Program-made: the position numbers and the translations under genes
Origin: a virus
Taxonomy: Duplodnaviria > Heunggongvirae > Uroviricota > Caudoviricetes
Strand: one strand, 5' to 3'
DNA length: 64,000 nt
IMG/VR virus record: IMGVR_UViG_3300046507_000426
In this document: piece by piece, positions 16,618-64,000 of the stretch
Position numbering within the stretch: the stretch's first letter is position 1
Layout: each line of letters opens with the position of its first letter
Notes under the pieces: model-generated
What the model saw: only the letters and a program-made list of their open reading frames with translations
What the model was told of the DNA's origin: nothing
Databases searched by the model: none

Positions 16618-16641
16618 AAAAGTATTGTTACTACCAATACT

Positions 16642-21154: not shown

Positions 21155-21206
21155 GATTTTTTAACGCCTCGTTAAATTAAAGTTGCCTACTCTTTGTAGG
21201 ACTTGG

Positions 21207-22355: not shown

Positions 22356-22412
22356 TCGAGCCTCTCGAAGTTAAAGAAAAGCGGCAACTCTCTGTTACCG
22401 CACAAACCTATG

Positions 22413-22892: not shown

Positions 22893-22948
22893 TTAAGTCT
22901 CCTAGACTAAAAAGAAAGTGTCAAGGAAGTAATTTCCCCGACACTTTG

Positions 22949-22957
22949 CTTATACCA
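22949..22957 (-). promoter_or_regulatory. TTGGTATAAG-type promoter (variant ATGGTATAAG)
   Basis: Plus cttatacca in intergenic region. Confidence 0.4.
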
Positions 22958-22973
22958 TAATACCTAAATTTGT

Positions 22974-31143: not shown

Positions 31144-31556
31144 AGCGTGAATTGAATAACGTCAGCAATCTGGTTGAAGGTAAGCCCACCGTCGTTGAGT
31201 TCGGCCAAAGAATACCCCAAGTAGCCAGGGGTATCTTCAAAGGACTTTGTAAATCCCTGGTAAATTCCAGTATTGGGATTTTCCTTGTCGAGATCGGCCC
31301 ATTTCATAACACTAGCAGGAGGTACAACTTCTGACCCTTCAAATGTACCAATGGAAGTATACTTTTGCAAAACCCTGCTATCTTCCTCCTTAGCGGTTCT
31401 CGGCACCCATTCACCTTCTCCAGTTTTCTTCATGTAAAGATCACAGAGAACGCCAAGACAACACATGCCGCCGTCACCGTTCAAGACATGTTTGGCTTGT
31501 TTGTATTCGCCGCTACGCAGAGCAGAGATCCATTCCTGTTTGATTTCGTTGTTCAT
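31140..31556 (-). CDS. Paralogue 1 of tandem family (start at internal ATG MNNEIKQEW)
   Basis: MNNEIKQEWISALRSGEYKQ...MCCLGVLCDLY...LTFNQIADVIQFTL; longer variable core. Confidence 0.5.
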   Translation of the reverse strand: MNNEIKQEWISALRSGEYKQAKHVLNGDGGMCCLGVLCDLYMKKTGEGEWVPRTAKEEDSRVLQKYTSIGTFEGSEVVPPASVMKWADLDKENPNTGIYQGFTKSFEDTPGYLGYSLAELNDGGLTFNQIADVIQFTL

Positions 31557-31720
31557 TTCGTTACTCCGAGTTTTGCTGTTAGTAGAACGCAGGTGAATCC
31601 AACTACGACACACATGACGTAGCCTGCGAATTTAAGGGTATTACGGCGACGCATTTTGACCAACCAAAAAAGAGAGATGCAGAATTAAAGGCTACTTCTT
31701 ATACAACTCTCTTATACCAA

Positions 31721-31735: not shown

Positions 31736-32266
31736 TTAGCCTCCAGAAGACCAGCCTTCCCGTTCCATCATGGCCATAGCTTCGCCTTCAAAGGCGTCTT
31801 TTAGCAATGCCGGGTCGGCTTCTCTTAGCGCCAGCATCATTGCCAGATTTGCAATGTCTACGGGATCCCCTTTGGGGACATGGCTGACAAGAAGATTCGC
31901 TAATCGTTTTGTACTGCATTGTTCTGGATCATCCCAACCGCTTCTACCCTTCTCACGAGACTTTGCAAGCTTCGCTTTCATCATGGCTGCGAACTTGTCT
32001 ACTGCGAAATCGTCAGGATGAGGCTCCGATACTTTGGAACCTTCCCACACATAGACTAGCTCTTCGAGTTCTTTCAAGGCCGCGTTTCTGTTCTTGTGTT
32101 GACTGCGTTCTGTAATGCATTCGGTCACAATACCGCTAGGGATGTGCGTGATTCTCACACCATTAGCCATTCCTACTCTTTGACCACCTACGGCACCGCC
32201 ATAACAGTCGATGCGTAGGTCTTTAGGGTTAATCGAAACCAAAGGTGTCTGACGCTCTTCTTTCAT
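31736..32266 (-). CDS. Peptide-chain-release-factor GGQ-domain protein (ArfB/PrfH-like peptidyl-tRNA hydrolase domain) with novel acidic C-terminus
   Basis: 176 aa; [46 protein letters not shown] closely resembles RF1/RF2 domain 3 (SGAGGQHVN..VRITHIPTGIVVQCQ.ERSQHKN); lacks codon-recognition domains. Confidence 0.7.
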
Positions 32267-33863: not shown

Positions 33864-34709
33864 TCAGTTACCCATTTTCGGAAGCTGGATAAGAGCCGAA
33901 CTGCCACTGCCGAGTTGATACGTCGGAAGTTGACCGTTCCACTTTTCGATCCACATTTGTTGCAGAATCTCCGGGTTCTTGGCCAGTGCCTGACCACGAA
34001 TAGCCGTAGCTTGTGCTTCGTTTGCAGCGATCTTCAGGTCGGCATCCGAATTGGCAATACGCTTTGCAGCATCTGCCTGGGTTTTCTGCAGCTGGTTCTG
34101 CGACGTGATAGCGTCCATCTTTGCCTGTTGCTGAGCATTGATGGAATCCTGAATCGCAGGAGGCCAACGGAATGCGCCTACGTTCGAGAGCAGTTCAACC
34201 GACAACCCGCTAGGTGCTGCACGCTTGGCGAGTTCAGCGTTAACAGCAACCATGAAGGCCGGAATGTCATTGCTGATCTGCTCGAAGGTAAGCTTACCCG
34301 CGATTTCGTTAAGACTGTCACGGATAAGGTTACGCAAAGGACCGTCGGTAATACCGTTCAGATCCTTGTGGTACTTCTGGAACACAAGCGGAGCACTGTC
34401 TGCAGCGATGTGATACGCAACACCGAAGTCAGCATTGATGGCAACGCCACCCTTTGCCTGGAACGTGATCGACTCGTCGGCCGGATGACCTTCTTCCGGA
34501 GCCTTGCTGTACACGTAGTTTTCCGTGAACGTCGGATACTCGTACACAGTCGTGTTCCAGCCGGTGAAGTACGAACCCGGGCCGAGAACCTTGTTCTGGA
34601 CGCCACGGTCACTGCCGTAGTTATCCACCTGAACACCGACGAAGCCTGCGCCAACCTTGGTACAGGCACCGAGCATGAATACAACGACGATAAGAAGAAG
34701 TTTCTTCAT
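33864..34709 (-). CDS. SPFH/band-7 (prohibitin/HflKC-like) lipoprotein
   Basis: Start at internal ATG gives MKKLLLIVVVFMLGAC lipobox; the body (about 280 aa, Gln/Ala-rich helical C-terminal region) resembles band-7/SPFH proteins. Confidence 0.6.
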   Translation of the reverse strand: MKKLLLIVVVFMLGACTKVGAGFVGVQVDNYGSDRGVQNKVLGPGSYFTGWNTTVYEYPTFTENYVYSKAPEEGHPADESITFQAKGGVAINADFGVAYHIAADSAPLVFQKYHKDLNGITDGPLRNLIRDSLNEIAGKLTFEQISNDIPAFMVAVNAELAKRAAPSGLSVELLSNVGAFRWPPAIQDSINAQQQAKMDAITSQNQLQKTQADAAKRIANSDADLKIAANEAQATAIRGQALAKNPEILQQMWIEKWNGQLPTYQLGSGSSALIQLPKMGN

Positions 34710-34906
34710 TGTGTTTTTTGTTTCTTTGGTTTGAGGAAGAAATACCAACCGCCAAAGGCGATTAGCGGGATGGTCAACCACAGCAGCGGCACGAAGTAAA
34801 TCAGGTCGCCTCCATTATTAACCAACTGCTGTGTTACGGGCAACAGCAGGAACAACAGATAGAGCGTTGCCAAAATCCCGTAGGCAACTGCTGCGATTTT
34901 CTTCAT
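34706..34906 (-). CDS. Small 2-TM membrane protein (possible NfeD-like partner of SPFH protein)
   Basis: 66 aa; two hydrophobic helices; 4-nt overlap with SPFH gene. Confidence 0.4.
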   Translation of the reverse strand: MKKIAAVAYGILATLYLLFLLLPVTQQLVNNGGDLIYFVPLLWLTIPLIAFGGWYFFLKPKKQKTQ

Positions 34907-35824: not shown

Positions 35825-37888
35825 TTACTTAACGTCTTTGAACTCGACGTCAGCAACGACGTGAGCATCCTTGTGCATGCCCAGCAACGTCATGTCGTTT
35901 TTGCCACCACGTTCGAACACCGCCTTCTGGAATTCCAGACCCTTGTTGAGGATCAGTTGGAAGTCCTTGATGTCCGTCGGACGCTTGCCTTTCAGTGCCA
36001 GAGCCGAAGCGTTGCGAGTAGCCGTCTTGATCTGACGACCATTGATCTCGTAGGTTTCGGCAAGGTAAAGAATTTCCGTCGCGGTGAGTTGCACCGAATT
36101 CATATTGAGGTTGTTCTCCCAAATTTGAACACGGTCACCAGTAGTCAGCGCAGGGAAGTTAATCGCCATGCTGATACGGGAGTAGAACGCCTTGTCGATG
36201 TTGCTTGCACGGTTCGACGTCAGGAACAGAACGCCTTGATAGTATTCCAGCAGACGCAGGAAAACACCGACCATAGCATTCCGTTGGATATTGCTATCCG
36301 TACGGGCTTCCATGAAGATGTCGCATTCGTCAAGCAGGAGCACTGCATTCCACGTCGCGGCGATATCCAGAACCTGACGCAGATTGTCTTCCAGCTCGCT
36401 GGCACTCGTCCCGAGTTCGCCAACGCCAACCATGTACAGCGGACGCTTCAGATGCTCTGCCGTAACTTCAGCAGTAAGCGTCTTGCCAGTACCCGGTTCA
36501 CCGGCCAGCAGGAAAATCGTGCCACCACCCTTGCCATCGATGATGTCGACCTTCTTGCCTTCCAGCTGGGTTTCCACCAGCGACACGATCATTTCCTTCT
36601 GATCTTCGTCCATCACCAGCTTGCCGTAAGCATCCGTACGGAACTGAATCGGAGTGATGTTGTCGACCAGCATTTCACCCCAGACCTTCGACAGGAACGA
36701 GAAGCCATAAACATACGGCGAGAACGTCAGATACACGTCATCGCTCAGCTTCACCGTTTCAGCCTTGGCCGTGTAGCCGTACGAGTCACGATCCTGAGTT
36801 CCGCCAAAGAACTTGCGGTAGTTCGGATCCATGATACGCATTGCCTGGAAGTCGATCATGACACGACCCGTCGAACGGAAAGCCGTGTTGCTCCAGTAGC
36901 CGCGACGAACCAGATCGCCCTTGTACTGCATGTACGACGACGAAGCCGTAACTTCGACACCGCGCTTGCCACGAGCGAGGAGACGGGCTTTGAGTTCAGC
37001 ATCCGATTCCAACGGCGTGATGCCCAGTTCCTTCAGGCTCTTCTTGCCGTCGTAACCACCGAAGTAGTACTGATGCGTGAATTGCTGAATTTCCTGACCG
37101 TTACGTGCGTACATATGCCCAGCTGCAGCGATGTACGGGCCGCTCATGCTCATCTGCTGACTTGCAGCGTGAGTCGTAACACAAACCAGGGCGAAGTCGT
37201 CTTCGACAACCAGCTTGATGCCAGGCTGAGCCAGGAGAACGGCGAGTTCGTCATACGTGAACTCGTTGTTGACCGACAGATTGCTGATATTGCCGAGAGT
37301 GTTTGCGTAGAACGCATTCACTTCTTCGAGGATACGGGTCATCTGCGAACGAACACGTTCGATGAAGTCCTGATCGTCGTTGTAGTCGTCCAGGTTGTTC
37401 AGGTACGATTCGATGTTCGAACGGTTCTTGAAGATTTCCAGACCGCCAACCATACCCGCGCCACGAGCAACGTTGAACTGTGCCGGGTTGTTGATGTAGT
37501 TGAACTCGTTCGTGGACGTGTTCATACGGCTGCCGATGACACGACCATAGTTGTTCATGTCCGCACGAATGTCATACGGAACATAAACCTTGATCTGTCC
37601 AGTACGGCCCGGAATCACTTCTGCAATCGGACGGGAAGCGACAGGCATTTCGTCGCTGCTGATCGAGATCGCCGCGATTTCTGCGATCGGATCCGTCTTG
37701 CCAAGACCGGCGTTTTCGAGAGCAGCCTTGACCACTTCTGCGATCATTGCAGCTTGTGCAGCCGCCGCAGCGACTTCCGGAGCGACAGCGGGTACATCAG
37801 CCTTGGCAACTTCGCCAATAGCAGCGCCTGCATTCGATTCCGCGATTTGTTCTTGAATGTCACTCACGTTGATTTCCTTCGTTTCCAT
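35825..37888 (-). CDS. AAA+ ATPase (start at internal ATG METKEIN)
   Basis: Walker A GEPGTGKT, Walker B LLLDECD, sensor region; about 687 aa with long N-terminal domain. Confidence 0.65.
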   Translation of the reverse strand: METKEINVSDIQEQIAESNAGAAIGEVAKADVPAVAPEVAAAAAQAAMIAEVVKAALENAGLGKTDPIAEIAAISISSDEMPVASRPIAEVIPGRTGQIKVYVPYDIRADMNNYGRVIGSRMNTSTNEFNYINNPAQFNVARGAGMVGGLEIFKNRSNIESYLNNLDDYNDDQDFIERVRSQMTRILEEVNAFYANTLGNISNLSVNNEFTYDELAVLLAQPGIKLVVEDDFALVCVTTHAASQQMSMSGPYIAAAGHMYARNGQEIQQFTHQYYFGGYDGKKSLKELGITPLESDAELKARLLARGKRGVEVTASSSYMQYKGDLVRRGYWSNTAFRSTGRVMIDFQAMRIMDPNYRKFFGGTQDRDSYGYTAKAETVKLSDDVYLTFSPYVYGFSFLSKVWGEMLVDNITPIQFRTDAYGKLVMDEDQKEMIVSLVETQLEGKKVDIIDGKGGGTIFLLAGEPGTGKTLTAEVTAEHLKRPLYMVGVGELGTSASELEDNLRQVLDIAATWNAVLLLDECDIFMEARTDSNIQRNAMVGVFLRLLEYYQGVLFLTSNRASNIDKAFYSRISMAINFPALTTGDRVQIWENNLNMNSVQLTATEILYLAETYEINGRQIKTATRNASALALKGKRPTDIKDFQLILNKGLEFQKAVFERGGKNDMTLLGMHKDAHVVADVEFKDVK

Positions 37889-37920
37889 ATCGATTAGGCT
37901 ACAAAAAGTGCTGCAAAGAA

Positions 37921-37946
37921 AAACCCCTCTAGACTTCAGAGGGGTG
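37921..37946 (-). terminator. Rho-independent terminator after tRNA pair
   Basis: Minus strand CCACCCCTCtgaagtctaGAGGGGttt. Confidence 0.5.
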
Positions 37947-37972
37947 GTTATAAAGCTTCTCAATAAACTTCT

Positions 37973-38072: not shown

Positions 38073-38142
38073 TAACAAAAGGGGGATACGAGCCCCCAGC
38101 CTCACAAGAGTATGTGCGCTCTACCAATTGAGCTATTTTGTT
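38073..38142 (-). ncRNA. tRNA-like RNA with canonical acceptor, D- and T-arms but a 6-nt anticodon loop
   Basis: Acceptor AACAAAA/TTTTGTT, D-arm GCTC-AATTGGTA-GAGC, T-arm GGGGG-CTCGTAT-CCCCC, anticodon region CACA-TACTCT-TGTG. Confidence 0.35.
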
Positions 38143-38182: not shown

Positions 38183-38728
38183 TCAATCTAGTTTAATGAG
38201 TCCTGCATGAACCTCACGGTGACAATTGGAACACAGTAAAGCACATTTATCTAATTCTGTAAATAAATCTTTGTCATTTAAAGTAGCGTCTCGTCCGTAT
38301 CTAGAAATAAGAAAGTCTTTTTCTTTAGGATCTAAATGATGAAATTCTAAAGCGCCTTCATATTTGTCGTATCCGCAACACTGGCATTTATTACCTTTAT
38401 AATCTAAGGCCTGTTTTTTAATACTATTTTTAGCTGCATAGTTTTGTTGCTTTACACACGCTTTGCAATAAGAGCCGGGTTTTTCTTTACCAGATATAAC
38501 AACTTTTCTAAATTCAAAAACAGATTTTTCTAATTTGCAAGAGCGGCAAATTTTAGTTTTTAATTGTTCATACGAAACGTATGAATCGTACTTTTGGGCA
38601 AGCTGGGTTTTAATACCCAGTTTTTTCATGTAGTACTTTACTTTATGAATTGAACAGCCAAGATGTTCACTCATTTCTTTGGCTGTCAATCCCATATCTA
38701 TCAAGGGTTGAAGTATGTCAGAGTTCAT
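38183..38728 (-). CDS. HNH homing endonuclease (HTH plus Zn-ribbon plus HNH)
   Basis: LEFHHLDPKEKDF...CALLCSNCHREVH; paralogue of 28076..28600. Confidence 0.7.
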   Translation of the reverse strand: MNSDILQPLIDMGLTAKEMSEHLGCSIHKVKYYMKKLGIKTQLAQKYDSYVSYEQLKTKICRSCKLEKSVFEFRKVVISGKEKPGSYCKACVKQQNYAAKNSIKKQALDYKGNKCQCCGYDKYEGALEFHHLDPKEKDFLISRYGRDATLNDKDLFTELDKCALLCSNCHREVHAGLIKLD

Positions 38729-39002: not shown

Positions 39003-39326
39003 TTAGGGTCTCCACAAAGGCAAATTACTAAAGAGCTTACGATCTTCCTGATTAATAGACACGGTCGTGATCGACGTCCAACCCATGTCATCGTCAGGCT
39101 CGTGGAACGTGCTGTGAACGATGCCTGCAGCCTTAAGTTTTTTGTGAAGCTCAAGCAAGGCTTCTTCGTTTGGCACCTGCAAGAGGACCAGCGAAGGGAT
39201 TTCACAATCTAATGCCGCACCGTTTTTCGGATCGGCTTGGCCAGCGTGAAATGCGGAATGCGCAGTCTGAACGATCTGATCTGCGAGGGGAATATCTTTG
39301 CGAATGATTGAATAAATGTAAGACAT
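39003..39326 (-). CDS. Putative PTH2-family peptidyl-tRNA hydrolase (divergent)
   Basis: 107 aa; IIRKDIPLADQIVQTAHSAFHAG resembles the PTH2 vvRtDL...aAQ.aHAa block. Confidence 0.4.
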   Translation of the reverse strand: MSYIYSIIRKDIPLADQIVQTAHSAFHAGQADPKNGAALDCEIPSLVLLQVPNEEALLELHKKLKAAGIVHSTFHEPDDDMGWTSITTVSINQEDRKLFSNLPLWRP

Positions 39327-39440: not shown

Positions 39441-39516
39441 TGGTAGGAACATCGGGGCTCGAACCCGAGACCTTCAGATTTAGAATCCGCTGCTCTGCCA
39501 ACTGAGCTATATTCCC
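39441..39516 (-). tRNA. tRNA with anticodon CTA (putative amber suppressor)
   Basis: Acceptor GGGAATA/TGTTCCT, D-arm GCTC-AGTTGGCA-GAGC, A26, anticodon arm GCGGA-TTCTAAA-TCTGA (U33, anticodon C34-U35-A36, A37), T-arm TCGGG-TTCGAGC-CCCGA, A73-CCA. Confidence 0.5.
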
Positions 39517-42892: not shown

Positions 42893-43303
42893 TTAAAGTA
42901 GCGGTAACCCACCGGTCACCGTATCTATCTTATCTTCAAAATCCGGACCTACTGCGATGCAAGTATTAGTAGGTATTCCGTGAAATTCTGTAAGACCAGA
43001 ATCTGTAATCAATGAAGTTATGATACCAGCTTCTTTTGCCTTTGCATAGAGTGCGAGTAGTTCTTCTTCGGAATTTACATATACACACACTTTTTTGAAG
43101 TTGCCCAGGAGCCAGTCATGCATACGGTTGTCGACTTTCAGTCGAAACTCTGCAGTGACTTCTCCGTTGATCCGGTCGTTTTCTTTAATGTAATGACCTT
43201 GATTCAAAATCGCTGCTAGACTTGCATGGGCACCTTGTGCCACAGCTTTTCCGGTGCGCATTTTGAGGTCTTTTCTAATTACAATAATTTGCTTGTGACT
43301 CAT
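42893..43303 (-). CDS. PTH2-family peptidyl-tRNA hydrolase
   Basis: 136 aa; IVIRKDLKMRTGKAVAQGAHASLAA matches the PTH2 signature strongly. Confidence 0.7.
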   Translation of the reverse strand: MSHKQIIVIRKDLKMRTGKAVAQGAHASLAAILNQGHYIKENDRINGEVTAEFRLKVDNRMHDWLLGNFKKVCVYVNSEEELLALYAKAKEAGIITSLITDSGLTEFHGIPTNTCIAVGPDFEDKIDTVTGGLPLL

Positions 43304-43457: not shown

Positions 43458-43997
43458 ATGTCTAATAAAAATCTCAAAGAACAAATTATAACACTTAAAC
43501 AACGAGGACTATCTTATAAAGATATCCAAAAACAACTCAACTGTTCCAAGGGAACGATATCGTATCACTTGGGAGAAGGTCAGAAAGAAAAAACGTATAA
43601 CAGAACAATTGAACTTCGTAAGCAAAATACTCTTCTTCAAAAGAAAGATCATTTTCTAGGAGCTAGAACTAAGAAAAATTTCCAAGAAAGAACAAGAGCG
43701 TTTCAGTGCATCGACAATGGTTCTAAAACCTCTGATAAAATCCAATCTAATTTTACCTGGCAAGAACTTTTAGAAAAGTTTAATGGTACTTGTTACTTAA
43801 CAGGAAGACCTGTAGACATTACTAAATCTGCAGAATATCAATTAGATCATATCGTTCCTAGATCTAAAGGAGGCCCCGACACCTTAGACAATTGCGAATT
43901 TGCGTGTAAGGATGCAAATTTTGCAAAGAGTAACCTATCCCTGGATGAATTTAAACAACTCTGTCTAGACGTTGTAAATCACTTCGGCCTTAAATAA
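43458..43997 (+). CDS. HNH homing endonuclease (plus strand, inside tRNA cluster)
   Basis: 179 aa; DHIVPRSKGGPDTLDNCEFACKDANFAKSN HNH motif; N-terminal HTH. Confidence 0.7.
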   Translation: MSNKNLKEQIITLKQRGLSYKDIQKQLNCSKGTISYHLGEGQKEKTYNRTIELRKQNTLLQKKDHFLGARTKKNFQERTRAFQCIDNGSKTSDKIQSNFTWQELLEKFNGTCYLTGRPVDITKSAEYQLDHIVPRSKGGPDTLDNCEFACKDANFAKSNLSLDEFKQLCLDVVNHFGLK

Positions 43998-52098: not shown

Positions 52099-54522
52099 TT
52101 ACAAACGCGGATCCAGCGTCTTTTCTTCATTCAGTTGCGAGATCATTTTCACAACCAGTTCAGTCAGAGCAGGGCCATTGTCTGCTGTCAGCATTGCCAG
52201 TGCAAGATCGTGTTCCTTGATAGAAACCTTCAGCTTACCGCCGACACGTTTTTGACGACACAGGGCTTCATAACGGTTCTTGTAATCATAGCCATACACA
52301 AGAGTCAGGTAATTTTCATTCCGAACCTTCATATACGGTGCAACATCTGCCGTACCGTCAAGAGGCTTGATTACAAGGCCTTCCATCTTTTCATCAACGG
52401 TTTTACAGTTGAAGAAAGTCTTTGCATTTTCCAAAACCTCTTTATCGTTTTCAAGGTCGATGATTACGATGTCGTCCTGGTTAACCAAGTCAAAGGAATC
52501 TGCAATCTGGAATTTGTCACCAAACACCTTACCGTCAACCTTCAGAATAGAGAACGCACTGTATTCCGGACGGCTTTCCTGAGCATAAATATCAAGGGTT
52601 TCGCCGAATATCTTCAGATCAACCTGACGAGCTTCGACGTCGATTTTTGCCTTGAATCCCAACTTGGCAAATTCCTCATCGTTAGCCAATGCATCCAGTT
52701 CGTAATGTACCAAACCTTCATACGCACGGAACTGTTCGTCAACCAGACTTTTACCAAGGGTCGTCCACGGCAGAAGTTCACCGTCAAGAATCAGTTCTTC
52801 TTGCCAGAAGTCAATACTTTCCCCTTCGTACTTAGCAAGCAATTCCTGAATCATAACGGTGAGGTCTTCTGTCATGCGAATCTTAAAGCCATTACGAGAA
52901 ACCAGGAAACACTCTTCCGGTTTACCGCGATACAGATATGCCTGACAACGTGAACCCATGTACTTCGGTTGAAGCATGACCCGCTTCGTTCCACGACTTT
53001 TGAAATACTCAAGTCCAGCTTCAAGACTTTCGATTTCAGTGTTAGTCGACGGAGCAGGGGCCATCGTTCCTGAAATGTACTGAACTCGGTTTGCGATAGT
53101 ACGCTTCAGAAATCTCATATCTTCCGGCGACAGTTTGTAGTCGTAGATATTGAACGACTTCTGCGGAGGTGCTATCGGAGTCGTCAAGAAGTTCTGAAGA
53201 CCCTTGTGAACTGTTACCTTTTCAGCTGCCTGAACCGAATCAAACCAGTAACGATTTCCTTTATAACAGAAAGCAGTAAGCTTGCCGCCATAAACAGCCC
53301 CAGTATCGAGAAACACCTTGTTACGATGTTCCAGTTTGGCTGCATTGTGAGCAACGTGCCCAAACACATGCAAAGGAAAATTCCCAACAGCTTCCTTGAA
53401 AATAAACTCATAAGCCTTCCGGTAGTCTTCTTTTCGATCACCGTACAGATTGCGCTGAGCCTTAAGTGCTGCAGAATTCATCTTACCCAAATACTTCTGC
53501 TCGCACGGAGCATGGGTTACGTAAACTGTACGGACTTGGTTGCCGTGAATCTTCAAGAACGGAACAGAACAGCGATCGAACAAGTCCACAAGCTCTGCTG
53601 CCAACGTTTCGTCTTTCAACAGAACGTCAAGCGAACTCATGTACTTCGATTCCATCTCCAGATCAGGATTTTTGATTTCACCCTTGATACGCTTCACCGC
53701 ATACGACTCGTGATTGCCGTGGAGAATAATGCCACCGTCGGTGTGAAACTTCCTGGCGAAGGCAATTGCTTTGGCAGTATCATTGCCTTTGTCAATGTAA
53801 TCACCGACAAGAACATTGATGCTATTTGCACCGACCTTAGCTACAAGCTGTTCAGCAGCTTCCGTGTGTTCATGTACATCTCCGATGATATTCACCTGCA
53901 TGTCTCGACCAAGATAGAGCTGAGTAGCTGCGTATTTGCCCAAATCTTCGATTTCAACTTCCAGATCTATCCACTTTTTGGCGTCTCGTTCACGGATACG
54001 AATACAATCATCGTGATCTTTACGACCGAGATTCGGAAGGACGCTTTGTTTGAATCGCTTGGCGCTCGATTCTACAACCCGTTTTTCTTCCTCATTCGAT
54101 TCCGACCAGTACTGATAGTTCGGATATTCAAACGTAATCAATTCAGTACGATATTCGTTTTCTTCAGCGAGTTTACGAATTTCCTTTCGAAACGTATCAT
54201 TCATACCAGTAGTATCAACGATTACGAATTCACTGTTGATCGGGAACGCAATCGCCGCTTTAAACTTCGCCATCATCACGTTGAAAGCTGCTTCCGAAGC
54301 TTCCATCATGACCGGGGCGTAACGATGGAGACTCAAATCATCCAAGACGTTCATTCGTTCAGCATCAGAATTCAAGTTTACAACCTTCGAACCTGCAGCA
54401 AGTCCTGCTTTCATCAACTGAAAGTTCAACGCAAGTTCGAACTGTTTCGAGAATGTGGTTTTACCGCACATCGAAGGGCCAACCAAAATGAAGACTGTGT
54501 GGAGTTTAGTTTGAATTTTCAT
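52099..54522 (-). CDS. pnkp: Bacterial-type polynucleotide kinase-phosphatase with C-terminal ligase domain (Pnkp)
   Basis: 807 aa; N-terminal P-loop GPSMCGKTT (kinase); central metallophosphoesterase motifs IIGDVHEH...GDYIDKGND...LHGNHESY; C-terminal nucleotidyltransferase/ligase KVDG motif (SILKVDGKV). Confidence 0.75.
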   Translation of the reverse strand: MKIQTKLHTVFILVGPSMCGKTTFSKQFELALNFQLMKAGLAAGSKVVNLNSDAERMNVLDDLSLHRYAPVMMEASEAAFNVMMAKFKAAIAFPINSEFVIVDTTGMNDTFRKEIRKLAEENEYRTELITFEYPNYQYWSESNEEEKRVVESSAKRFKQSVLPNLGRKDHDDCIRIRERDAKKWIDLEVEIEDLGKYAATQLYLGRDMQVNIIGDVHEHTEAAEQLVAKVGANSINVLVGDYIDKGNDTAKAIAFARKFHTDGGIILHGNHESYAVKRIKGEIKNPDLEMESKYMSSLDVLLKDETLAAELVDLFDRCSVPFLKIHGNQVRTVYVTHAPCEQKYLGKMNSAALKAQRNLYGDRKEDYRKAYEFIFKEAVGNFPLHVFGHVAHNAAKLEHRNKVFLDTGAVYGGKLTAFCYKGNRYWFDSVQAAEKVTVHKGLQNFLTTPIAPPQKSFNIYDYKLSPEDMRFLKRTIANRVQYISGTMAPAPSTNTEIESLEAGLEYFKSRGTKRVMLQPKYMGSRCQAYLYRGKPEECFLVSRNGFKIRMTEDLTVMIQELLAKYEGESIDFWQEELILDGELLPWTTLGKSLVDEQFRAYEGLVHYELDALANDEEFAKLGFKAKIDVEARQVDLKIFGETLDIYAQESRPEYSAFSILKVDGKVFGDKFQIADSFDLVNQDDIVIIDLENDKEVLENAKTFFNCKTVDEKMEGLVIKPLDGTADVAPYMKVRNENYLTLVYGYDYKNRYEALCRQKRVGGKLKVSIKEHDLALAMLTADNGPALTELVVKMISQLNEEKTLDPRL

Positions 54523-54531
54523 TGTTGATCC

Positions 54532-55833
54532 TTACTTGTTTTTCGTTACGACAAGCATCGTCGAAGTATGAACGCCATTTACTGCATCGCCGATACCTTG
54601 GCCGATGGTCGAAATTGCATGGGACTTAGAGATTTTCCAGAGCCAATCGTAGAAGTCCTGTTCATTCATTTCCCACTTGTGATCATCGTGACGGAACTGA
54701 TCTTCTGTCATCAGATAATTCACATTGAAAGCCTTGTTCGGAACCGTGATAACCAACTTGTTAAAGTCAGTCTTCAGAACGGCATCAACAAGCTGTTTTG
54801 CATCTTTAAGAGGAATGTGCTCCAGAACTTCTGTGATGAGCACGTCTGCTCCGCTAAAGAGCAAGGAACACTCATCAATCGATTCGGGAGTTGCAGCATC
54901 TCGGAGAATAACGTTTTCGACTTCTCGTCCCTTGAGTTTTTCAAGCATGTTCTCGCGGAGTTCGTCATCCGCTTCAAACGCAAGGACTTGTTCATATTTC
55001 GAACTGAGCGGGAGCGTGTAATTGAGTTCACCGCACCCAATGTCAATGAGTGTCGCTCCTCCTCCCAGATGGGGGAAGATAGCTTCTTTACGCTGAGCAA
55101 GGGTGTCACCGTGCCAGAGGTCGATCGTGTCCGTATCAAGCAGCGATTTGTTCTTAAGAAATGTGTCACGATTTGAGAATACATTCCGTTTGAAGAGGTA
55201 ACGAATGAAGTACGGTGCATTGATACGATTTATCGCAGCAATATACTTCTCGACGATATCGCCCTTGAGATTGACGTAAATGCTTTTTGTCGAAACGCAG
55301 AACATCAGGAAAATTACCATTGCCGCATTGAGCATTTCGTGAACTGTAGGCCCCGAGATAGTGACCTTGTACGCACAGCCTGCGATATGTTCGGCTACAA
55401 AGCTGTACCCATTGTCCAACCCGAAGGAACCATTGAAGTGTTGATTCAGATGATTCAACATGCTGGCGCTGCGAATTTCGACCGTAGTTTCCAGGTACGC
55501 ACTCCAAGATTCCGAAGTGTCTTCTTCCTGATGTGTTTTAAACGCTGTTGCCAAACAGTTCGTAATCAGCGAAATCGGCAAGTAGGGAGACGCATAGCGG
55601 GTACGGTCAAGATATTCAAACTCTTGGCCAATGCCCTCCGCAAAAGAACAGTTCTGAGGACTGTCTTTAAACCAAAGCCGAAAGCTTTGATCATCGGCTC
55701 CGAACCATCCATACGCCATACCTTGACGGATCGATTTCTTGTAGGGCTCTGCACTTTCACGAATCGTTGCAGGGTTCTTGGAAATGATCCAGGAAAACTT
55801 GGGGTTCGAAGACCCGATAGTAAGTACGGCCAT
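54532..55833 (-). CDS. hen1: Hen1-like RNA 3'-terminal 2'-O-methyltransferase (bacterial Hen1, Pnkp partner)
   Basis: 433 aa; C-terminal Rossmann SAM-MTase motif I LIDIGCGELN plus acidic motifs; N-terminal domain of Hen1 size; immediately upstream of and co-directional with pnkp, 10-nt spacing. Confidence 0.65.
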   Translation of the reverse strand: MAVLTIGSSNPKFSWIISKNPATIRESAEPYKKSIRQGMAYGWFGADDQSFRLWFKDSPQNCSFAEGIGQEFEYLDRTRYASPYLPISLITNCLATAFKTHQEEDTSESWSAYLETTVEIRSASMLNHLNQHFNGSFGLDNGYSFVAEHIAGCAYKVTISGPTVHEMLNAAMVIFLMFCVSTKSIYVNLKGDIVEKYIAAINRINAPYFIRYLFKRNVFSNRDTFLKNKSLLDTDTIDLWHGDTLAQRKEAIFPHLGGGATLIDIGCGELNYTLPLSSKYEQVLAFEADDELRENMLEKLKGREVENVILRDAATPESIDECSLLFSGADVLITEVLEHIPLKDAKQLVDAVLKTDFNKLVITVPNKAFNVNYLMTEDQFRHDDHKWEMNEQDFYDWLWKISKSHAISTIGQGIGDAVNGVHTSTMLVVTKNK

Positions 55834-58505: not shown

Positions 58506-59009
58506 TTATTCCTTTTCTGGGATTGATGATACTGCTAGTTGATCTACCGCTTCGTTCCAGGTATTGCCTGAATGACCCTTTACCCACTTCCACTTCAAAT
58601 TACTAAACTGATTAACTGTGGAGTCAAGTCGTTCCCACAAGTCTCTATTTTTAACTGGCTTTTTATTTGAACCAATCCAGCCTTTTGCTTTCCAACCTTT
58701 GATCCACTCAGTAATGCCTTGTAAAACGTATTTCGAATCAGTTACTACTGTGATGTCTAAATCCGGTTTATGATTTAGATTGTATAGACCGCTTATTACT
58801 GCCATAAGCTCCATACGATTATTAGTAGTATCTTCTTCTCCCCCACTACCCCGTGCTGTTTCTGAATACAACTTAAGAGTCTTTGAAGGATTTAACGGAT
58901 CCATAATAGCAGGTGCAATACCTTCAACTACTCTGATCCAACCCCACCCGCCAGGTCCAGGATTACCTGAACAAGCCCCATCCGTATAAATAGTTACTTG
59001 TTCAGTCAT
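58506..59009 (-). CDS. rnhA: Ribonuclease HI
   Basis: 167 aa; VTIYTDGACSGNPGPGGWG followed by a typical RNase H fold. Confidence 0.8.
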   Translation of the reverse strand: MTEQVTIYTDGACSGNPGPGGWGWIRVVEGIAPAIMDPLNPSKTLKLYSETARGSGGEEDTTNNRMELMAVISGLYNLNHKPDLDITVVTDSKYVLQGITEWIKGWKAKGWIGSNKKPVKNRDLWERLDSTVNQFSNLKWKWVKGHSGNTWNEAVDQLAVSSIPEKE

Positions 59010-59010: not shown

Positions 59011-60714
59011 TTACGCTCTCATCTTCATCAACATATCATTCACAGCTTGCTGCGTAATGCCAGGCTTCACTTCTTTTACCTGACCCCAGTTAAAACCAAT
59101 TTCACCTTCCACGCCAATCGGAAGGTCCAGCCAATCGAAATGCTCTACGGGCCATTCGTTCATGTAATAGAACGCTGTCTCGATCACTTCTGCTGCACGT
59201 TCAATCGGTACTTCGAATTCTACCGAATCATACACGGTACAGATACTCTTACAACGTGGATCGATCTTTTGAATCGCCTGGTCCAAATGTGCAAACGTTA
59301 CAAGACCAAGCGTAGACGTTGCACTTTGAATACGAACGTTTTGTGCATTGCGCAGCGATGCGTTATATGCTGCGGTACGCTTGAACGCAGGCTGAGCAAC
59401 ATACTCGTGCTTGTACTGACCAAACGGAGTCCATACTTTCTGGTTCAACAGTGCCATCTGATGCGATTCTTCAATGTAGTCTTTAACGCCGGGATAAGCG
59501 TTGAAGTACATATTGACCAGTCGCTCTGCCTCACTCTTTTCTAACTGCAACTGCATTGCAATACCATTCACTGACGAGCCATATAAAATTGAAAAAGTTA
59601 AAACTTTTGCAACTTGTCGCATACGCTTGTACTCTTTCTTCAGAGGATGCGAATCATCTTCCAGGATATGGATATAGTCTTCGTACGGCACACCCATCAT
59701 CGCACTTGCCGAAAATGAATGGAAATCCAAACCTTCAGCAATTGCACGAAGCATATTCTTGTCTTTACAGATAGCTCCTAAGATTTTTACTTCTGCTGAC
59801 GAGAAATCAAAAGCGATGAACACATTACCGTTAGCAACAGTGTAGCACTCTCGGACATTATAACCATGCTTTGGACGGGGAAGCTGAGTTAAATTGGGTG
59901 AATCTGCGGTTATTCTAAAACTGCTAGTGCCAAACATGTTGTAACTAGGATGAATACGTCCATCCGTACGAACGAAATCTTCTACATACGTTTTAATAAA
60001 AGTATTATGGACGCTATTGATATCTTTTCGTTTAGCCATATCAGCTAAAAACTGTTTTTCAGGATCCGGGGCTGTATATTGATTAGCTAACGGATTCAAT
60101 CCAGCCAACGTCAAAAGCGCAGCACCATCAGTTGCGTCATCGCCAGACTTAGTCTTGAACGGTGCTTCAAGTCCTAGTTCACCATAAAGATACTGAGACA
60201 CTTCAACGCCAGAGTCTAGATTGATTCGCTTACCAATTGCACTGAAAATCTTCTCATCAAACTCTGCTACTTCCTGGACCATCTGCTGCGAGATTGCCCG
60301 GTTCCTAGCTATATCATAAAGCATCCCATTAATTTCGAGATTAATAATGAACTCATGACAAAGCATTTCCGTCTCTAGAACGGACTTGATAATACCAGGT
60401 GCTGTTATTTTCTTAGGTTGCCCATTTTTCTGAGGCATCAATAACTCTTGTGGCTTTACTAAAGCAGGCCACAATGCAGTAAGAACTTCTGAAGTTACTA
60501 TATTATCAATTCCTGCATACAACATCAAATCAGAATAGTTAAAGTCTTCATATGTACGGTAGATTTTCTTCTCTTCAGAAATCTCAACTACCGTCGGTTC
60601 TTTCTTCTTTCGAGCCTTTTTACTAGCCGGGGCTTCTACAGCTTTTTCGACAACCTTGTCTCCTAGTACTTCTGCGATAGGTTTTTTGGATTTAGGTACA
60701 ATACGTTTAATCAT
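59011..60714 (-). CDS. Family A DNA polymerase, polymerase domain (C-terminal part of split PolA)
   Basis: 567 aa; motif A-like FDFSSAEVKI, motif B RMRQVAKVLTFSILYGSS, motif C VYDSVEFEV. Confidence 0.75.
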   Translation of the reverse strand: MIKRIVPKSKKPIAEVLGDKVVEKAVEAPASKKARKKKEPTVVEISEEKKIYRTYEDFNYSDLMLYAGIDNIVTSEVLTALWPALVKPQELLMPQKNGQPKKITAPGIIKSVLETEMLCHEFIINLEINGMLYDIARNRAISQQMVQEVAEFDEKIFSAIGKRINLDSGVEVSQYLYGELGLEAPFKTKSGDDATDGAALLTLAGLNPLANQYTAPDPEKQFLADMAKRKDINSVHNTFIKTYVEDFVRTDGRIHPSYNMFGTSSFRITADSPNLTQLPRPKHGYNVRECYTVANGNVFIAFDFSSAEVKILGAICKDKNMLRAIAEGLDFHSFSASAMMGVPYEDYIHILEDDSHPLKKEYKRMRQVAKVLTFSILYGSSVNGIAMQLQLEKSEAERLVNMYFNAYPGVKDYIEESHQMALLNQKVWTPFGQYKHEYVAQPAFKRTAAYNASLRNAQNVRIQSATSTLGLVTFAHLDQAIQKIDPRCKSICTVYDSVEFEVPIERAAEVIETAFYYMNEWPVEHFDWLDLPIGVEGEIGFNWGQVKEVKPGITQQAVNDMLMKMRA

Positions 60715-61345
60715 ATTTCTTACGATAATTAATTGTGGATAAGGCTTTTTCTAAAGGCCAGTTATTTTTCAAACGAGTATGTAGAGTTGTAACTGAAATG
60801 CCTAATTTTTCAGCCCACTGTAATTGTGTCATGGTTTCGTTTTTGAAAGTGATAATTTTCGTAGAACGTCTGTTATTACTTTGTTCTTTATTATCGGACC
60901 ATTTACAATTAGCTTTACAATAATTCCCATTTACATCTATACGATCTATGGAAAGTCCCTCTGGCCTTTCTCCCATATCTTTTAGAAATGCTTCAAATGA
61001 TTTCCACCGTTCATCTACGGATATACCCCTTCCACCGTAGTTTGGATAATTATCTTGAGCCTCATCCGTACAGCGAGCCCACATACTTATCCAAGTTTTA
61101 TACGTCTTGGTTTTACTTAGTCCATGCGTCTGACTTCTGATAACAGTTAATTCTTTAGCCAAACAGCCACAAGAGTTACTATCTCCACCTCTAAGTGAAG
61201 CTCCTGATATAGATTTAATATTTCCACAACTGCATTTACAAATCCAAAAAGGCCGTTTAGAAACTCGTTCGACGTCTATACCTGTAACGGTTAACCTACC
61301 AAAGACTTTACTTGTTAAGTCGATGTATCTACTTTTCATCTTCAA
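60707..61345 (-). CDS. Free-standing homing endonuclease (HNH-type) splitting the DNA polymerase gene
   Basis: 212 aa; Cys-rich N-terminus, W...RC...YPNYGGRGISVDERW block common in phage homing endonucleases; sits exactly between the exo-domain and pol-domain ORFs. Confidence 0.45.
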   Translation of the reverse strand: MKMKSRYIDLTSKVFGRLTVTGIDVERVSKRPFWICKCSCGNIKSISGASLRGGDSNSCGCLAKELTVIRSQTHGLSKTKTYKTWISMWARCTDEAQDNYPNYGGRGISVDERWKSFEAFLKDMGERPEGLSIDRIDVNGNYCKANCKWSDNKEQSNNRRSTKIITFKNETMTQLQWAEKLGISVTTLHTRLKNNWPLEKALSTINYRKKYD

Positions 61346-62582
61346 CCTCGACTTCTCCTAATTCTTCCAAATCTTTTGTTTTGGTAAGTTTCGGAAGTAA
61401 GTCTTCATAGCCACCAAGCCCAGTCCAAGGCACAATATCCCATACAGCAGTCTTGAGCGAGTAAGTGTTTTGCGCTCCCGAATCTAGGCTATGTAGAAGA
61501 AGAAGAGTATCAAACGCAACATTCTTAACTCGGACTTTCGTTGTAAACCAAATATATAGTATGTCGAACTTCGCATTGTGCAAAACTTTAGGTCTGTCAC
61601 CTTCTAAAAATGGCTTCACCAATTCCCACGCTTCATCTCCGCTATAGAATGTATTTTCTCTATGCCACAGCGGTACAACTAAAGCTTTAACCAACTTATC
61701 AGCCGGATCTCTATATCCGAACTGAATACACAACAACTTTGCGTCAGGCGCTAGTCCATCGAACCCCGTAGTCTCAGTATCTACACTGACAATCGAATTC
61801 TCAGGAAGAGCCCAGAGGATGTCCATGTACTCTTTTACGTCCTCAATAGACTCTGCAACACGAATTCTGTTCTGCTTGTAAAACTCAATTGCTTCCAGTA
61901 GCGGAGCTGGCTTTAGATCACCCCTAGCCATCGCTGCTGCCTTCTTGAAGTCACGGAGGATCACTCCATATAACTCCTGTCCCCAGAAGGCTCCTGAAGC
62001 GTTTTGACGAATCATTGTCAATGCTCTGGGATGAATCGTAATCACGACATTGTCAACGTACTCACCCCTATTACCCGTATTACTGTGTTTCTTGTAACCC
62101 AACGCTTTAGTCACTGCAGTTGCCAGACTAATGATCACCTTAGGTTTACAGGATTCAATCTCCTGCCAAAGGTAAGGTCTACACTTCATCAGCGTTGTTG
62201 CTGTCGGAGCTTTACCATTTGGAAAATCTGCTTCTGTCGGAGGACACTTCAACAGATCTACCATGCGATATGTCAGGTTCCCGAACCCAGCTGCCTTACA
62301 CAGATGGAAGATGATGTCCTGCATCAGCTTTTCTTGCTGACCTTCAAACTTGTCCCACTTACCGTCCGGTGCTGCATGATCCTGGATGATAAGAATGTCT
62401 ACTTCTTTCTTGGCTAAAAAGACAGATTCGTATTGCTTGCACTTCAGCTTACAGACCTTCTCACAATACGTCGGGCTGATCTTACTGAAATCCTCTTTAA
62501 CATGAATAACTGCCTCTACTGTACTTGTAATCTTTGGTTTTGCATACAAGTCGTTTAGCGCCATGTCGGCGAGTTTTACCAC
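61329..62582 (-). CDS. N-terminal part of split family A DNA polymerase: UDG-like domain plus 3'-5' exonuclease domain
   Basis: 417 aa; Exo I SVDTETTG, Exo II/III HNAKFD; N-terminal about 250 aa with HP motif (VVITIHPRAL) reminiscent of family 4/5 UDG-like domains. Confidence 0.65.
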   Translation of the reverse strand: MVKLADMALNDLYAKPKITSTVEAVIHVKEDFSKISPTYCEKVCKLKCKQYESVFLAKKEVDILIIQDHAAPDGKWDKFEGQQEKLMQDIIFHLCKAAGFGNLTYRMVDLLKCPPTEADFPNGKAPTATTLMKCRPYLWQEIESCKPKVIISLATAVTKALGYKKHSNTGNRGEYVDNVVITIHPRALTMIRQNASGAFWGQELYGVILRDFKKAAAMARGDLKPAPLLEAIEFYKQNRIRVAESIEDVKEYMDILWALPENSIVSVDTETTGFDGLAPDAKLLCIQFGYRDPADKLVKALVVPLWHRENTFYSGDEAWELVKPFLEGDRPKVLHNAKFDILYIWFTTKVRVKNVAFDTLLLLHSLDSGAQNTYSLKTAVWDIVPWTGLGGYEDLLPKLTKTKDLEELGEVEVEDEK

Positions 62583-62638
62583 TGTGTTACCTCACTAAAA
62601 ACAATATTGTACCACCAAGCTATTTGCCCGGCAGTACG

Positions 62639-62647
62639 CTTATACCG
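62639..62647 (-). promoter_or_regulatory. TTGGTATAAG-type promoter (variant CGGTATAAG)
   Basis: Plus cttataccg. Confidence 0.35.
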
Positions 62648-62664
62648 CAATTGTTGCTACTAAT

Positions 62665-63504
62665 TTAGGCAACGTTGGCTTGATCGTGGAAGAGCCTGAA
62701 ACTACCATCGCTTACCGTCAACGACGTAAGCTTCGGAATGTTCGTGAGCCTCACGATCGCACTACGTTCTACTTCCCTGCTACCGCGATGCTTCTCCGGG
62801 ATACGATTCCAGGTTCCGTCATCGATCAGCATGATCTTCTTAACTTTACGGGTGAACGTGCCTTGACGGAACGACTCTGGGTACTCTGCAAAGTTGATGC
62901 CTTTCTCACGTAACATTTCAATTTTCTCAGCAGTGTTCTTCTTGTGAAGTTCACCATGAAAAAAGACACTGTGTGCAGCCATGCTTACGCTATTCTTTCT
63001 GGCGTCCCACTGCCTCCAGATAAAATAATCGTATGCCAGGTCCCAACGAGGATACTGATATACCCGAGCATCGAAGACTGGGCGTTCAGCAAACTTGTTT
63101 GGTAGAAAGCCCTGCAGGTACGAGTTAAAAATAACCGAACACTTTGCTGCATACACACTCAACCACTTCTGAACGCTACCATCAAACTCAAGAGGTTTCT
63201 CAGTATCGAGATTGAACCAGAAGAGGCTGATCTCATCGCTTTGATGATATGCGAGATCAGGATTCAAATCTCGAATCAGATCGTCGACCGTGCATTGGAA
63301 TGTCTGTGCCAGATCCTTGTCGTAAGGCTTGCTAAGGTTCTTTGTGAACGTGTGAAAAGCGTTGCCGTCGAAACGGATGACCGTGGGAAGACCAGGCATC
63401 AGTTTTTCACTGAAGTAGTTCTTCTCATATTTCTTATGCATGTCACCTAGCGCCTTGAAGTCTAGGTGACGGATTTGTTCGATAGTTTGTACGTTGTCGT
63501 TCAT
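62665..63504 (-). CDS. Thg1-like protein (tRNA-His guanylyltransferase family 3'-5' polymerase; tRNA 5'-end repair)
   Basis: 279 aa; VIRFDGNAFHTFTK (Thg1 VVRIDGRAFHNFTK), QSDEIS (QSDEYS), FDARVYQYP (FDGRVVLYP), YFIWRQWDARKNS (YLSWRQVDCHINN). Confidence 0.7.
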   Translation of the reverse strand: MNDNVQTIEQIRHLDFKALGDMHKKYEKNYFSEKLMPGLPTVIRFDGNAFHTFTKNLSKPYDKDLAQTFQCTVDDLIRDLNPDLAYHQSDEISLFWFNLDTEKPLEFDGSVQKWLSVYAAKCSVIFNSYLQGFLPNKFAERPVFDARVYQYPRWDLAYDYFIWRQWDARKNSVSMAAHSVFFHGELHKKNTAEKIEMLREKGINFAEYPESFRQGTFTRKVKKIMLIDDGTWNRIPEKHRGSREVERSAIVRLTNIPKLTSLTVSDGSFRLFHDQANVA

Positions 63505-63513
63505 TTCAATTGA

Positions 63514-63552
63514 CCAAAAAAAACCGGATGAAGATTGGGGATCAGCTTCCGG
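63514..63552 (-). terminator. Rho-independent terminator immediately upstream of the Thg1-like gene start
   Basis: Minus strand CCGGAAGCTGATCCCCAATCTTCATCCGGtttttttt. Confidence 0.6.
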
Positions 63553-63650
63553 TAAAAGACCAACTTGTCAAGGCCCTACGAAATCGTAAGCCCAATTCAA
63601 GGTAAGGGGAACTCTGCTGAAGGCGAAATCAACAGTTCTCTCCATACTTT
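63553..63650 (-). ncRNA. Short promoter-to-terminator transcription unit (about 100 nt): candidate small RNA or 25-codon micro-ORF
   Basis: TTGGTATAAG promoter at 63652-63660 and terminator at 63514-63552 bracket about 100 nt; contains ATG...TGA ORF MERTVDFAFSRVPLTLNWAYDFVGP. Confidence 0.3.
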
Positions 63651-63651
63651 A

Positions 63652-63660
63652 CTTATACCA
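63652..63660 (-). promoter_or_regulatory. TTGGTATAAG promoter
   Basis: Plus cttatacca. Confidence 0.45.
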
Positions 63661-63684
63661 AAAGAGGACCTGAATGATGACTTT

Positions 63685-64000
63685 AAAAAAACTGGACAAA
63701 CCCAAAAACCCGCAAAGCCTTACCCAGCTTGGCTTTCAGAGCTTCGTGTCCAATTTGTCCAAAAAATAAAATGAAACTGGACAGCCGCAAAGCCTTATCC
63801 AGCTTGGGTTTCAGAGGATTTGTCCAATTGTCCAGAAAAAATTTTCAACCATACCTCACTTTCTAATTGAGTAACACATCTTTTTACAAAACCCACAATA
63901 CCTCTCTTATATATAAATATATTTTTTAAAAAGTTCAAATATTATATATATATAAGACCCCCGGATTCTTAGACTCTAGGTGTAAACCCTATGTTTTTAT
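63685..64000. repeat. Copy B of the 316+ bp direct repeat (iterons plus AT-rich core), truncated by window end
   Basis: About 96% identical to 6308-6626 by direct alignment. Confidence 0.85.

Follow-up and report, generated by a model that had tools for sequence, protein, structure and literature searches.

A 64,000-nucleotide stretch of viral DNA (Caudoviricetes; IMG/VR record IMGVR_UViG_3300046507_000426), the whole of which is called the window here, was analyzed with a focus on the gene at positions 62665-63504. The original prediction, made from the sequence alone, had placed at these positions a Thg1-like 3'-5' polymerase, an enzyme that repairs tRNA 5' ends. An uninterrupted open reading frame (ORF) of 279 amino acids (aa), running from ATG to stop, fills exactly this interval on the minus strand. 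The gene for this Thg1-like protein (TLP) and its parts are as follows.

62665-63504, minus strand: TLP gene, 279 aa plus stop (ORF, Pfam, PHROG, PDB, AlphaFold model, and Foldseek)
63049-63438, minus strand: palm/catalytic domain, residues 23-152 (Pfam Thg1), which holds R44, D46, K59, S89, D90, E91, K113, and R147
63364-63375, minus strand: R44-F-D46-G motif, with D46 as the first metal-binding carboxylate and R44 as the counterpart of R27/R28 (phmmer; PMC3701042)
63232-63240, minus strand: S89-D90-E91 motif, equivalent to S75-D76-E77 of human THG1 (hTHG1) and S74-D75-E76 of the Bacillus thuringiensis TLP (BtTLP) (phmmer alignment)
62980-63018, minus strand: W-R164-Q-W-D-A-R-K-N171-S-V-S-M175 block, which in TLPs takes the place of the HINNLYN region of eukaryotes (alignment)
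62668-63030, minus strand: C-terminal domain, residues 159-279, with the subfamily motif IPEKHR...R (weak Pfam Thg1C match; E value, 0.016)

Pfam analysis matched the ORF to the Thg1 family (PF04446) over residues 23-152 with 91.4 bits, against a curated cutoff of 29.2 bits (E value, 5.9e-26). The ORF also matched PHROG 4717, annotated as "tRNA-His guanylyltransferase" (E value, 1.5e-66), and its best sequence match among solved structures was BtTLP (PDB 4kgk; E value, 1.4e-33), with a Methanosarcina TLP and yeast, human, and Candida Thg1 as more distant matches (E values from 2e-10 to 2e-8). No NCBIfam model matched the ORF. The family match is beyond chance, and the predicted Thg1-like gene is therefore confirmed; there is hardly any room for doubt that the ORF belongs to the Thg1/TLP family. 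The start codon is supported by the N-terminus, which is conserved in close homologs, and the IPEKHR...R motif of the C-terminal domain is also seen in homologs. Among TLP family members, the proportion of nonsynonymous differences (pN, 0.12-0.20) lies far below that of synonymous differences (pS, 0.73-0.90), at which synonymous sites are saturated, indicating that the gene is under purifying selection.

The four conserved blocks on which the prediction was built were all located (R44-F-D46-G...FHTFTK; YHQ-S89-D90-E91-IS; FD-A-R147; and W-R164-Q-x-D-A-x-K-N171-S), and their key residues were invariant or nearly so in an alignment of 50 homologous sequences with 31-91% identity. Residues were mapped through phmmer alignments to hTHG1 and BtTLP, and their roles are those published for BtTLP and for the yeast (ScThg1) and human enzymes (PMC3701042).

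Metal-binding carboxylates and third carboxylate: phage D46, D90, E91; BtTLP D30, D75, E76; hTHG1 D29, D76, E77
5'-end activation: phage K59, S89; BtTLP K43, S74; ScThg1 K44, S75/S76
Nucleotidyl transfer: phage R44, K113, R147; BtTLP R28, K99, R131; ScThg1 R27, K96, R133
Salt bridge to the transfer-site arginines: phage E27; BtTLP E12; ScThg1 E13
Further conserved arginine: phage R164; BtTLP R147

R44, D46, S89, D90, E91, K113, R164, and N171 were kept in all 50 homologs, R147 in 49 of them, and M175 in 45, and the position of K59 was always occupied by Lys or Arg. The Thg1 hidden Markov model search and the alignment of catalytic carboxylates, which had been proposed as the way to check the prediction, gave a family match with every catalytic Asp and Glu present.

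An AlphaFold2 model of the TLP, built from the 50-sequence alignment, had a predicted local distance difference test (pLDDT) score of 89.2 and a predicted template modeling (pTM) score of 0.86. In the C-terminal part, pLDDT was about 76 or higher at residues 161-270 and about 63 over the last nine residues. When this model was compared with the PDB using Foldseek, the top 32 matches were all Thg1/TLP structures (E values from 1e-11 to 1e-17; template modeling (TM) scores of 0.66-0.81), and the best of them was BtTLP (4kgm; E value, 1e-17; target-normalised TM score, 0.80), so the predicted fold resembles that of the family. The palm domain of Thg1 has been evolutionarily unified with the GGDEF and Cas10 polymerase domains (PMC12657218). 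Alternatively, then, the phage protein might carry out another chemistry, such as nucleotide cyclization or signaling-molecule synthesis like that of GGDEF, Cas10, or mCpol domains, or it might be an inactive relic. Cas10 and cyclases did come next after the Thg1/TLP structures in the Foldseek search, but their matches were marginal (E values of 5e-3 or more; TM scores of 0.3 or less), and the TLP-specific activation and nucleotidyl-transfer residues are all kept. Cyclase or Cas10-like chemistry was rejected on the basis of the Foldseek scores and residue conservation, and the strong purifying selection speaks against a relic; this group of alternatives is scarcely credible. The phage protein is most likely catalytically competent as a 3'-5' RNA polymerase, as judged from its residues.

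The phage TLP scored 119 bits against BtTLP versus 37-43 bits against archaeal and eukaryotic members of the family (37-40 bits for yeast, human, and Candida Thg1). It reads DARKNSVSM, similar to DASKNSISM of BtTLP, at the position where eukaryotic Thg1 carries HINNLYN, a motif that recognizes the anticodon of tRNA-His (PMC6471195). Both the HINNLYN motif with its anticodon-stacking His and the Asn at ScThg1 position 161 are absent from the phage TLP; its M175 corresponds to M158 of BtTLP, where the eukaryotic enzymes have the activation-step Asn. By its scores and motifs, the phage protein is a bacterial-type TLP and not a eukaryotic-type Thg1.

The main job of the phage TLP is probably to mend 5'-truncated tRNAs by templated addition. 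BtTLP and an archaeal TLP (MaTLP) exhibited kcat/KM values 5- to 160-fold higher on 5'-truncated tRNAs than for G-1 addition, and they repaired with all four bases and also on tRNAs other than tRNA-His (PMC3061083). This in vitro preference agrees with what the original prediction had said of bacterial TLPs, and we infer from the homology to BtTLP that the phage enzyme should repair truncated tRNA likewise. In such a reaction, the 5'-monophosphate of the RNA would be activated with ATP or GTP, and a nucleoside triphosphate complementary to the base that faces it on the 3' strand of the acceptor stem would be added with the help of two metal ions on D46 and D90. Repeated addition would restore the nucleotides missing from the tRNA 5' end and would most likely keep the phage and host tRNA pool usable during infection. 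The TLP may act beside other products encoded in the window, namely the Pnkp-Hen1 pair, a peptidyl-tRNA hydrolase (PTH2), and a GGQ-domain protein, and the kinase of Pnkp could turn 5'-OH ends into the 5'-phosphate that the TLP requires. The genes in question and those next to the TLP gene are listed below.

61329-62582, minus strand: UDG-like plus 3'-5' exonuclease ORF, the N-terminal part of a split family A polymerase
60707-61345, minus strand: HNH homing endonuclease between the exonuclease and polymerase ORFs (phrog_374; E value, 1e-67)
59011-60714, minus strand: DNA polymerase family A (PolA), polymerase domain (PF00476; E value, 1.1e-59)
58506-59009, minus strand: RNase H
54532-55833, minus strand: Hen1 RNA 2'-O-methyltransferase, the RNA-repair partner of Pnkp (PF22032 Hen1_N; E value, 1.4e-51)
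52099-54522, minus strand: Pnkp with kinase, phosphatase, and ligase domains (PNKP_ligase, Metallophos, and AAA_33 matches)
42893-43303, minus strand: PTH2 (PF01981; 107.5 bits)
39003-39326, minus strand: possible second PTH2-like protein (PF01981; 22.4 bits, with a cutoff of 23)
31736-32266, minus strand: RF-1/GGQ-domain protein, 176 aa

The neighboring genes from the TLP gene to the ribonucleotide reductase (RNR) gene, which lies beyond Pnkp, downstream in the same block, are all on the minus strand. The location next to the DNA polymerase had been claimed correctly, in that the UDG/exonuclease ORF is the next gene downstream and is followed by the HNH and PolA ORFs. The Pnkp and Hen1 genes that had been claimed nearby were both found, 7 kb downstream of the TLP gene. 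Two PTH2 genes had also been claimed, of which the one at 42893-43303 is solid; the one at 39003-39326 is weakly supported, matched the solid PTH2 only locally over 26 residues, and was unconfirmed by BLASTP, PDB, or PHROG. A further claim, that the phage has the enzymes for 5'-end, 3'-end, and anticodon-loop repair, is supported with a reservation about 3'-end repair. Of the phage tRNA-repair gene set known from XacN1 and from Iyer et al. (2021), the window has Pnkp and Hen1 as end-healing and sealing enzymes as well as PTH2, and no CCA-adding enzyme, the dedicated enzyme for the 3' end, was detected in the window, which is part of a genome, either among its approximately 50 ORFs searched against Pfam or by tblastn with the enzyme of Vibrio phage D69. 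A T4-type RNA ligase was not found either when the ORFs of the window were scanned against Pfam.

The genomic context supports tRNA 5'-end repair: the Pnkp-Hen1 pair, which the relative L094 also keeps, lies 7 kb from the TLP gene, and the TLPs of Vibrio phage D69 and Xanthomonas phage XacN1 coexist with other RNA-repair genes. Several points weigh against it. No activity assay of any phage TLP was found in full-text literature searches, and no anti-phage tRNase in the literature searched is known to leave a short 5' truncation; those found cleave the loop or stem of the anticodon arm, the T-loop or D-loop, or the acceptor stem on its 3' strand. RNase P miscleavage has been proposed in bacteria as a source of 5'-truncated tRNA (PMC3061083). 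A survey of TLP neighborhoods at 80 viral loci of IMG/VR, made over 10 kb by single-sequence tblastn and thus of limited sensitivity, found RNA-repair genes to be rare within that distance (Pnkp, 0; Hen1, 0; CCA-adding enzyme, 2; RNA ligase, 2; Pnk, 1), and the association of TLP with RNA repair is therefore not general. Finally, the window covers part of the genome only, so a tRNA-His gene could lie elsewhere. A tRNA substrate, and a counter-defence or quality-control role, are what we infer for the phage TLP.

The candidate substrates lie in the same window.

25310-46096, minus strand: tRNA cluster of approximately 23 genes, candidate substrates of the TLP (ARAGORN, Rfam)

The cluster covers 18 amino acids, and several of its genes are 1-8 nt apart with CCA encoded. 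Six cluster tRNAs start with CC at +1/+2. With Rfam and relaxed ARAGORN settings, the list grew by Lys(UUU), Ser(UGA), and an unusual tRNA whose anticodon loop has 6 nt. The latter, a tRNA-like gene at 38073-38142 (minus strand), has an Rfam tRNA score of 49.5 bits and a perfect acceptor stem, but it is called by ARAGORN under relaxed settings only and cannot be assigned to an amino acid. An amber-suppressor-type tRNA (39441-39516, minus strand; anticodon CUA) is 74% identical to a nearby tRNA-Val; the stop codons of 45 confident genes (TAG, 3; TAA, 26; TGA, 16) neither show nor exclude amber recoding. A plus-strand endonuclease gene with helix-turn-helix (HTH) and HNH domains lies inside the cluster (43458-43997), and a Band 7/SPFH protein (33864-34781) and a 712-aa AAA ATPase (35825-37963) are encoded on the minus strand beside the tRNA region. 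The acceptor stems of the window tRNAs are intact except for 1:72 mismatches in one Met(CAU) and one Gln tRNA. Because of these intact stems, 5'-editing in the manner of mitochondria is unlikely, and this candidate role was rejected.

The family name and the public annotations as "tRNA-His guanylyltransferase" imply instead that the enzyme matures tRNA-His by adding G-1 opposite C73, on a phage tRNA-His encoded outside the window or on that of the host, for charging by histidyl-tRNA synthetase (HisRS). BtTLP does add G-1 opposite C73 as efficiently as yeast Thg1 does on its own substrate (kcat/KM of approximately 5500 M-1 s-1; PMC3061083), and the genome paper of phage CBB proposed a G-1 role for the tRNA-His of that phage. 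However, neither tRNA-His nor tRNA-Asp was found among the approximately 23 tRNAs of the window, part of the genome as it is, with ARAGORN, including relaxed settings, and Rfam. Within 10 kb of the viral TLP genes on 80 contigs, tRNA-His was the rarest type, with 2 of 165 tRNAs. Both of these tRNA-His genes encode G-1 opposite C73, as does the tRNA-His gene of XacN1; with the G-1/C73 pair encoded in all three phage tRNA-His genes examined, none of them therefore needs G-1 to be added post-transcriptionally. The anticodon-recognition motif HINNLYN of the eukaryotic enzymes is absent from the phage protein, BtTLP itself favors truncated tRNAs 5- to 160-fold, and most bacteria encode G-1 in their genomes (PMC3061083). 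Maturation of tRNA-His is thus considered unlikely as the main job of the TLP, and restoring a lost G-1 of tRNA-His opposite C73 is possible.

The gene order TLP, an optional 160-aa ORF, UDG/exonuclease, an optional HNH ORF, and PolA is kept in L001, L006, L093, and L094, which are all the TLP family members with enough flanking DNA. The HNH position in the relatives is taken by an ORF of 192-217 aa, or by none in L006. Hen1 and a ligase-bearing Pnkp occur in L001 and L094, and L093 has a 455-aa kinase-phosphatase instead. Upstream of the TLP gene, L006 encodes a primase-helicase, a PD-(D/E)XK nuclease, and HU. The conserved order of TLP, UDG/exonuclease, and PolA, together with this upstream gene set, might suggest that the TLP serves replication rather than tRNA, for example by extending or repairing RNA primers or other nucleic acids of the phage at their 5' ends; its conserved place at the head of the polymerase block would then be accounted for. 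Nevertheless, the adjacency is confined to this lineage, as none of the 80 other viral TLP loci had a PolA homolog within 10 kb. Phage D69, the closest TLP-bearing cultured relative by polymerase, keeps the two genes approximately 40 kb apart with its TLP among RNA-repair genes, and the block in the window also holds Pnkp-Hen1 and RNR, which makes it a region of general nucleic-acid metabolism. A role in replication is therefore very improbable. We know of no TLP that acts in DNA replication. A general linkage of TLP to PolA or to Pnkp-Hen1 was rejected, since neither was found within 10 kb at any of the 80 viral loci at the limited sensitivity of the search. In the related phage contig L007, a reverse transcriptase (RVT_1) is encoded at 3769-4578, approximately 2.3 kb upstream of the TLP gene.

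A protein identical to the phage TLP is already present in public metagenome data under the JGI name "tRNA(His) 5'-end guanylyltransferase," and 16 further metagenome proteins are 62-90% identical to it. TLP homologs were found in 161 of 50,697 GenBank phage records, many of them labeled tRNA-His guanylyltransferase, and in at least 591 IMG/VR contigs. No TLP of a phage isolate is more than 42% identical to the window protein, and a megablast search with positions 61000-64000 against the 50,697 phage records gave no match. Homologs of approximately 43% identity occur in bacterial-looking contexts (contigs of 26.5 kb and 1.2 Mb) and on a 485-kb contig that looks like a jumbo phage. By polymerase, the closest cultured relatives are Salmonella phage Arash (48%) and Vibrio phages D69, D181, and D148 (44%). 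The window gene is thus a divergent new member of an already annotated family, from an uncultivated lineage.

Hen1 is the rarer element of the gene set, with homologs in only five of the 50,697 phage records (Vibrio phages RYC and sm033, Xanthomonas phage XacN1, and Stenotrophomonas phages CM1 and RAS14), mostly labeled "polynucleotide kinase," "methyltransferase," or "hypothetical." That a phage with Hen1 also has a TLP was confirmed for XacN1 only, the other four not being checkable genome-wide; in Vibrio phage RYC, no TLP was found within 20 kb of Hen1. The presence of such enzymes in large phages has been described before: Thg1 was listed among the RNA-repair enzymes of jumbo phages (Iyer et al., 2021; PMC7824862), and Thg1, a CCA-adding enzyme, PNKP, Hen1, and PTH were reported in one phage, XacN1, in 2018 (PMC5852040).

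Transcription signals and a long repeat were located around the TLP gene.

62609-62637, minus strand: terminator-like hairpin after the TLP stop codon and ahead of the next gene (weak consensus match)
63687-63986, minus strand: one copy of a 300-nt repeat, located upstream of the TLP gene (other copy, 6308-6607)

One terminator-like site was found near the TLP gene versus 1.6 expected by chance, which is not significant, and no promoter was found by a sigma-70 scan upstream of the gene. The 300-nt element is a direct repeat, of which the two copies are 96% identical and 57,379 bp apart, one preceding the TLP gene by approximately 180 nt and the other following a Ro60 gene at approximately 500 nt. 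Read on the minus strand, each copy combines an AT-rich region and a 47-aa ORF with two hairpin-plus-T-run units, in which CCAAGCTGGRTAAGGCTTTGCGG occurs; the 23-mer is also present at 6703-6725 in inverted form with three mismatches. Contigs from five assemblies end at the repeat element, 217-319 bp upstream of the TLP gene. The upstream transcription unit probably ends at the repeat. The Ro60 homolog itself (7117-8739, minus strand) has TROVE and vWA domains (E values, 1e-57 and 1e-36). A search for a Y RNA near the Ro60 gene (5400-9300) or in the 300-nt repeat gave no Rfam match at an E value of 1 or less except for a spurious long noncoding RNA.

Other features of the window were also recorded. 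A metabolism block on the minus strand (14102-24371) encodes an NMT1-like protein (14102-15094), an NT5C-type nucleotidase (16812-17435), NAMPT (19757-21154), an NMNAT-Nudix protein (21207-22355), and ThyX (22974-24371). Six tandem paralogous ORFs of 117-157 aa (29360-31613, minus strand) have in common 'KAKWVAALRSGEYKQ...CCLGVLCD...LNDSG'; their member at 30431-30790 has no Pfam match and matches phrog_18067, the function of which is not known. Two paralogous ORFs with HTH and Cys-rich HNH-like regions were found at 28076-28600 and 38183-38728 (minus strand), and these two and the plus-strand HTH-HNH gene in the tRNA cluster are probably mobile endonuclease genes.

Bacterial-type TLPs repair truncated tRNA 5' ends in vitro, but no physiological role of theirs has yet been proven. 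As of 2010, no natural source of 5'-truncated tRNA had been demonstrated in bacteria (PMC3061083), and no source of such damage in phages was found in the literature searched. On a more speculative view, which we regard as improbable, the TLP would be the 5'-end arm of a coordinated multi-enzyme tRNA damage response, or its lineage-conserved coupling to the polymerase genes would reflect a part played by 3'-5' polymerization in phage replication. As part of a damage response, it would have as partners Pnkp with its kinase, phosphatase, and ligase, as well as Hen1, PTH2, the GGQ-domain protein, and Ro60, and it would counter an undescribed host defence nuclease that trims the 5' strand of acceptor stems. 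Either version, if true, would give a TLP of bacteria or phages a physiological role for the first time. A search for the TLP substrate, and perhaps also for a defence nuclease that attacks tRNA 5' ends, is well directed at phages in which a TLP coexists with PTH2, the rare Pnkp-Hen1 pair, and a large number of tRNAs. The window gene raises no question beyond those already raised by XacN1 and the jumbo phages.

Among the known enzymes, BtTLP (4kgk/4kgm) is the best sequence and structure match of the phage TLP, with common catalytic carboxylates, activation and transfer residues, and Met at position 158. The identity is only approximately 30-38% in the Foldseek alignments to BtTLP chains, however, and BtTLP is bacterial rather than phage-encoded. 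The phage protein exceeds BtTLP by 34 aa in length and carries an N-terminal extension of 17 residues as well as the C-terminal IPEKHR...R motif, which occurs in the subfamily of approximately 43% identity. Eukaryotic Thg1 (yeast; human, 3otb) has in common with it the palm fold, the two-metal active site, and the 3'-5' addition chemistry, which are predicted for the phage TLP; in contrast, the eukaryotic enzymes add a non-templated G-1 to tRNA-His by means of HINNLYN and N161, and the phage TLP is without the motif and has Met instead. DdiTLP3 of Dictyostelium can rebuild the 5' end of any tRNA, and it is the one TLP for which a repair role, the 5'-editing of mitochondrial tRNAs, has been demonstrated in vivo (PMC6471195). 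That editing needs encoded mismatches in the first three acceptor-stem pairs, whereas the acceptor stems of the phage tRNAs are mostly intact.

The phage genes of PHROG 4717 belong to the same family and come from large tRNA-rich phages, for example ORF183 of Ralstonia phage RsoM2USA, the "putative Thg1" of Pseudomonas phage 201phi2-1, and the genes of GAP32/CBB and of Bacillus phages; unlike in these, the TLP gene lies beside the DNA polymerase in the uncultivated lineage of the window. In Vibrio phage D69, the TLP gene is approximately 40 kb from the polymerase and within approximately 6 kb of Pnk, two RNA ligases, a CCA-adding enzyme, and a phosphoesterase. XacN1 resembles the window in having Thg1-like genes and PNKP together with Hen1. 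It likewise encodes a peptidyl-tRNA hydrolase and, besides many tRNAs and suppressor tRNAs, a Band 7 protein (PMC5852040), the gene for which lies among its tRNA genes. XacN1 differs in that it has a CCA-adding enzyme and tRNA-His, neither of which was found in the window, and in that its TLP lies in the terminal repeat near tRNA genes, whereas that of the window lies beside the polymerase.

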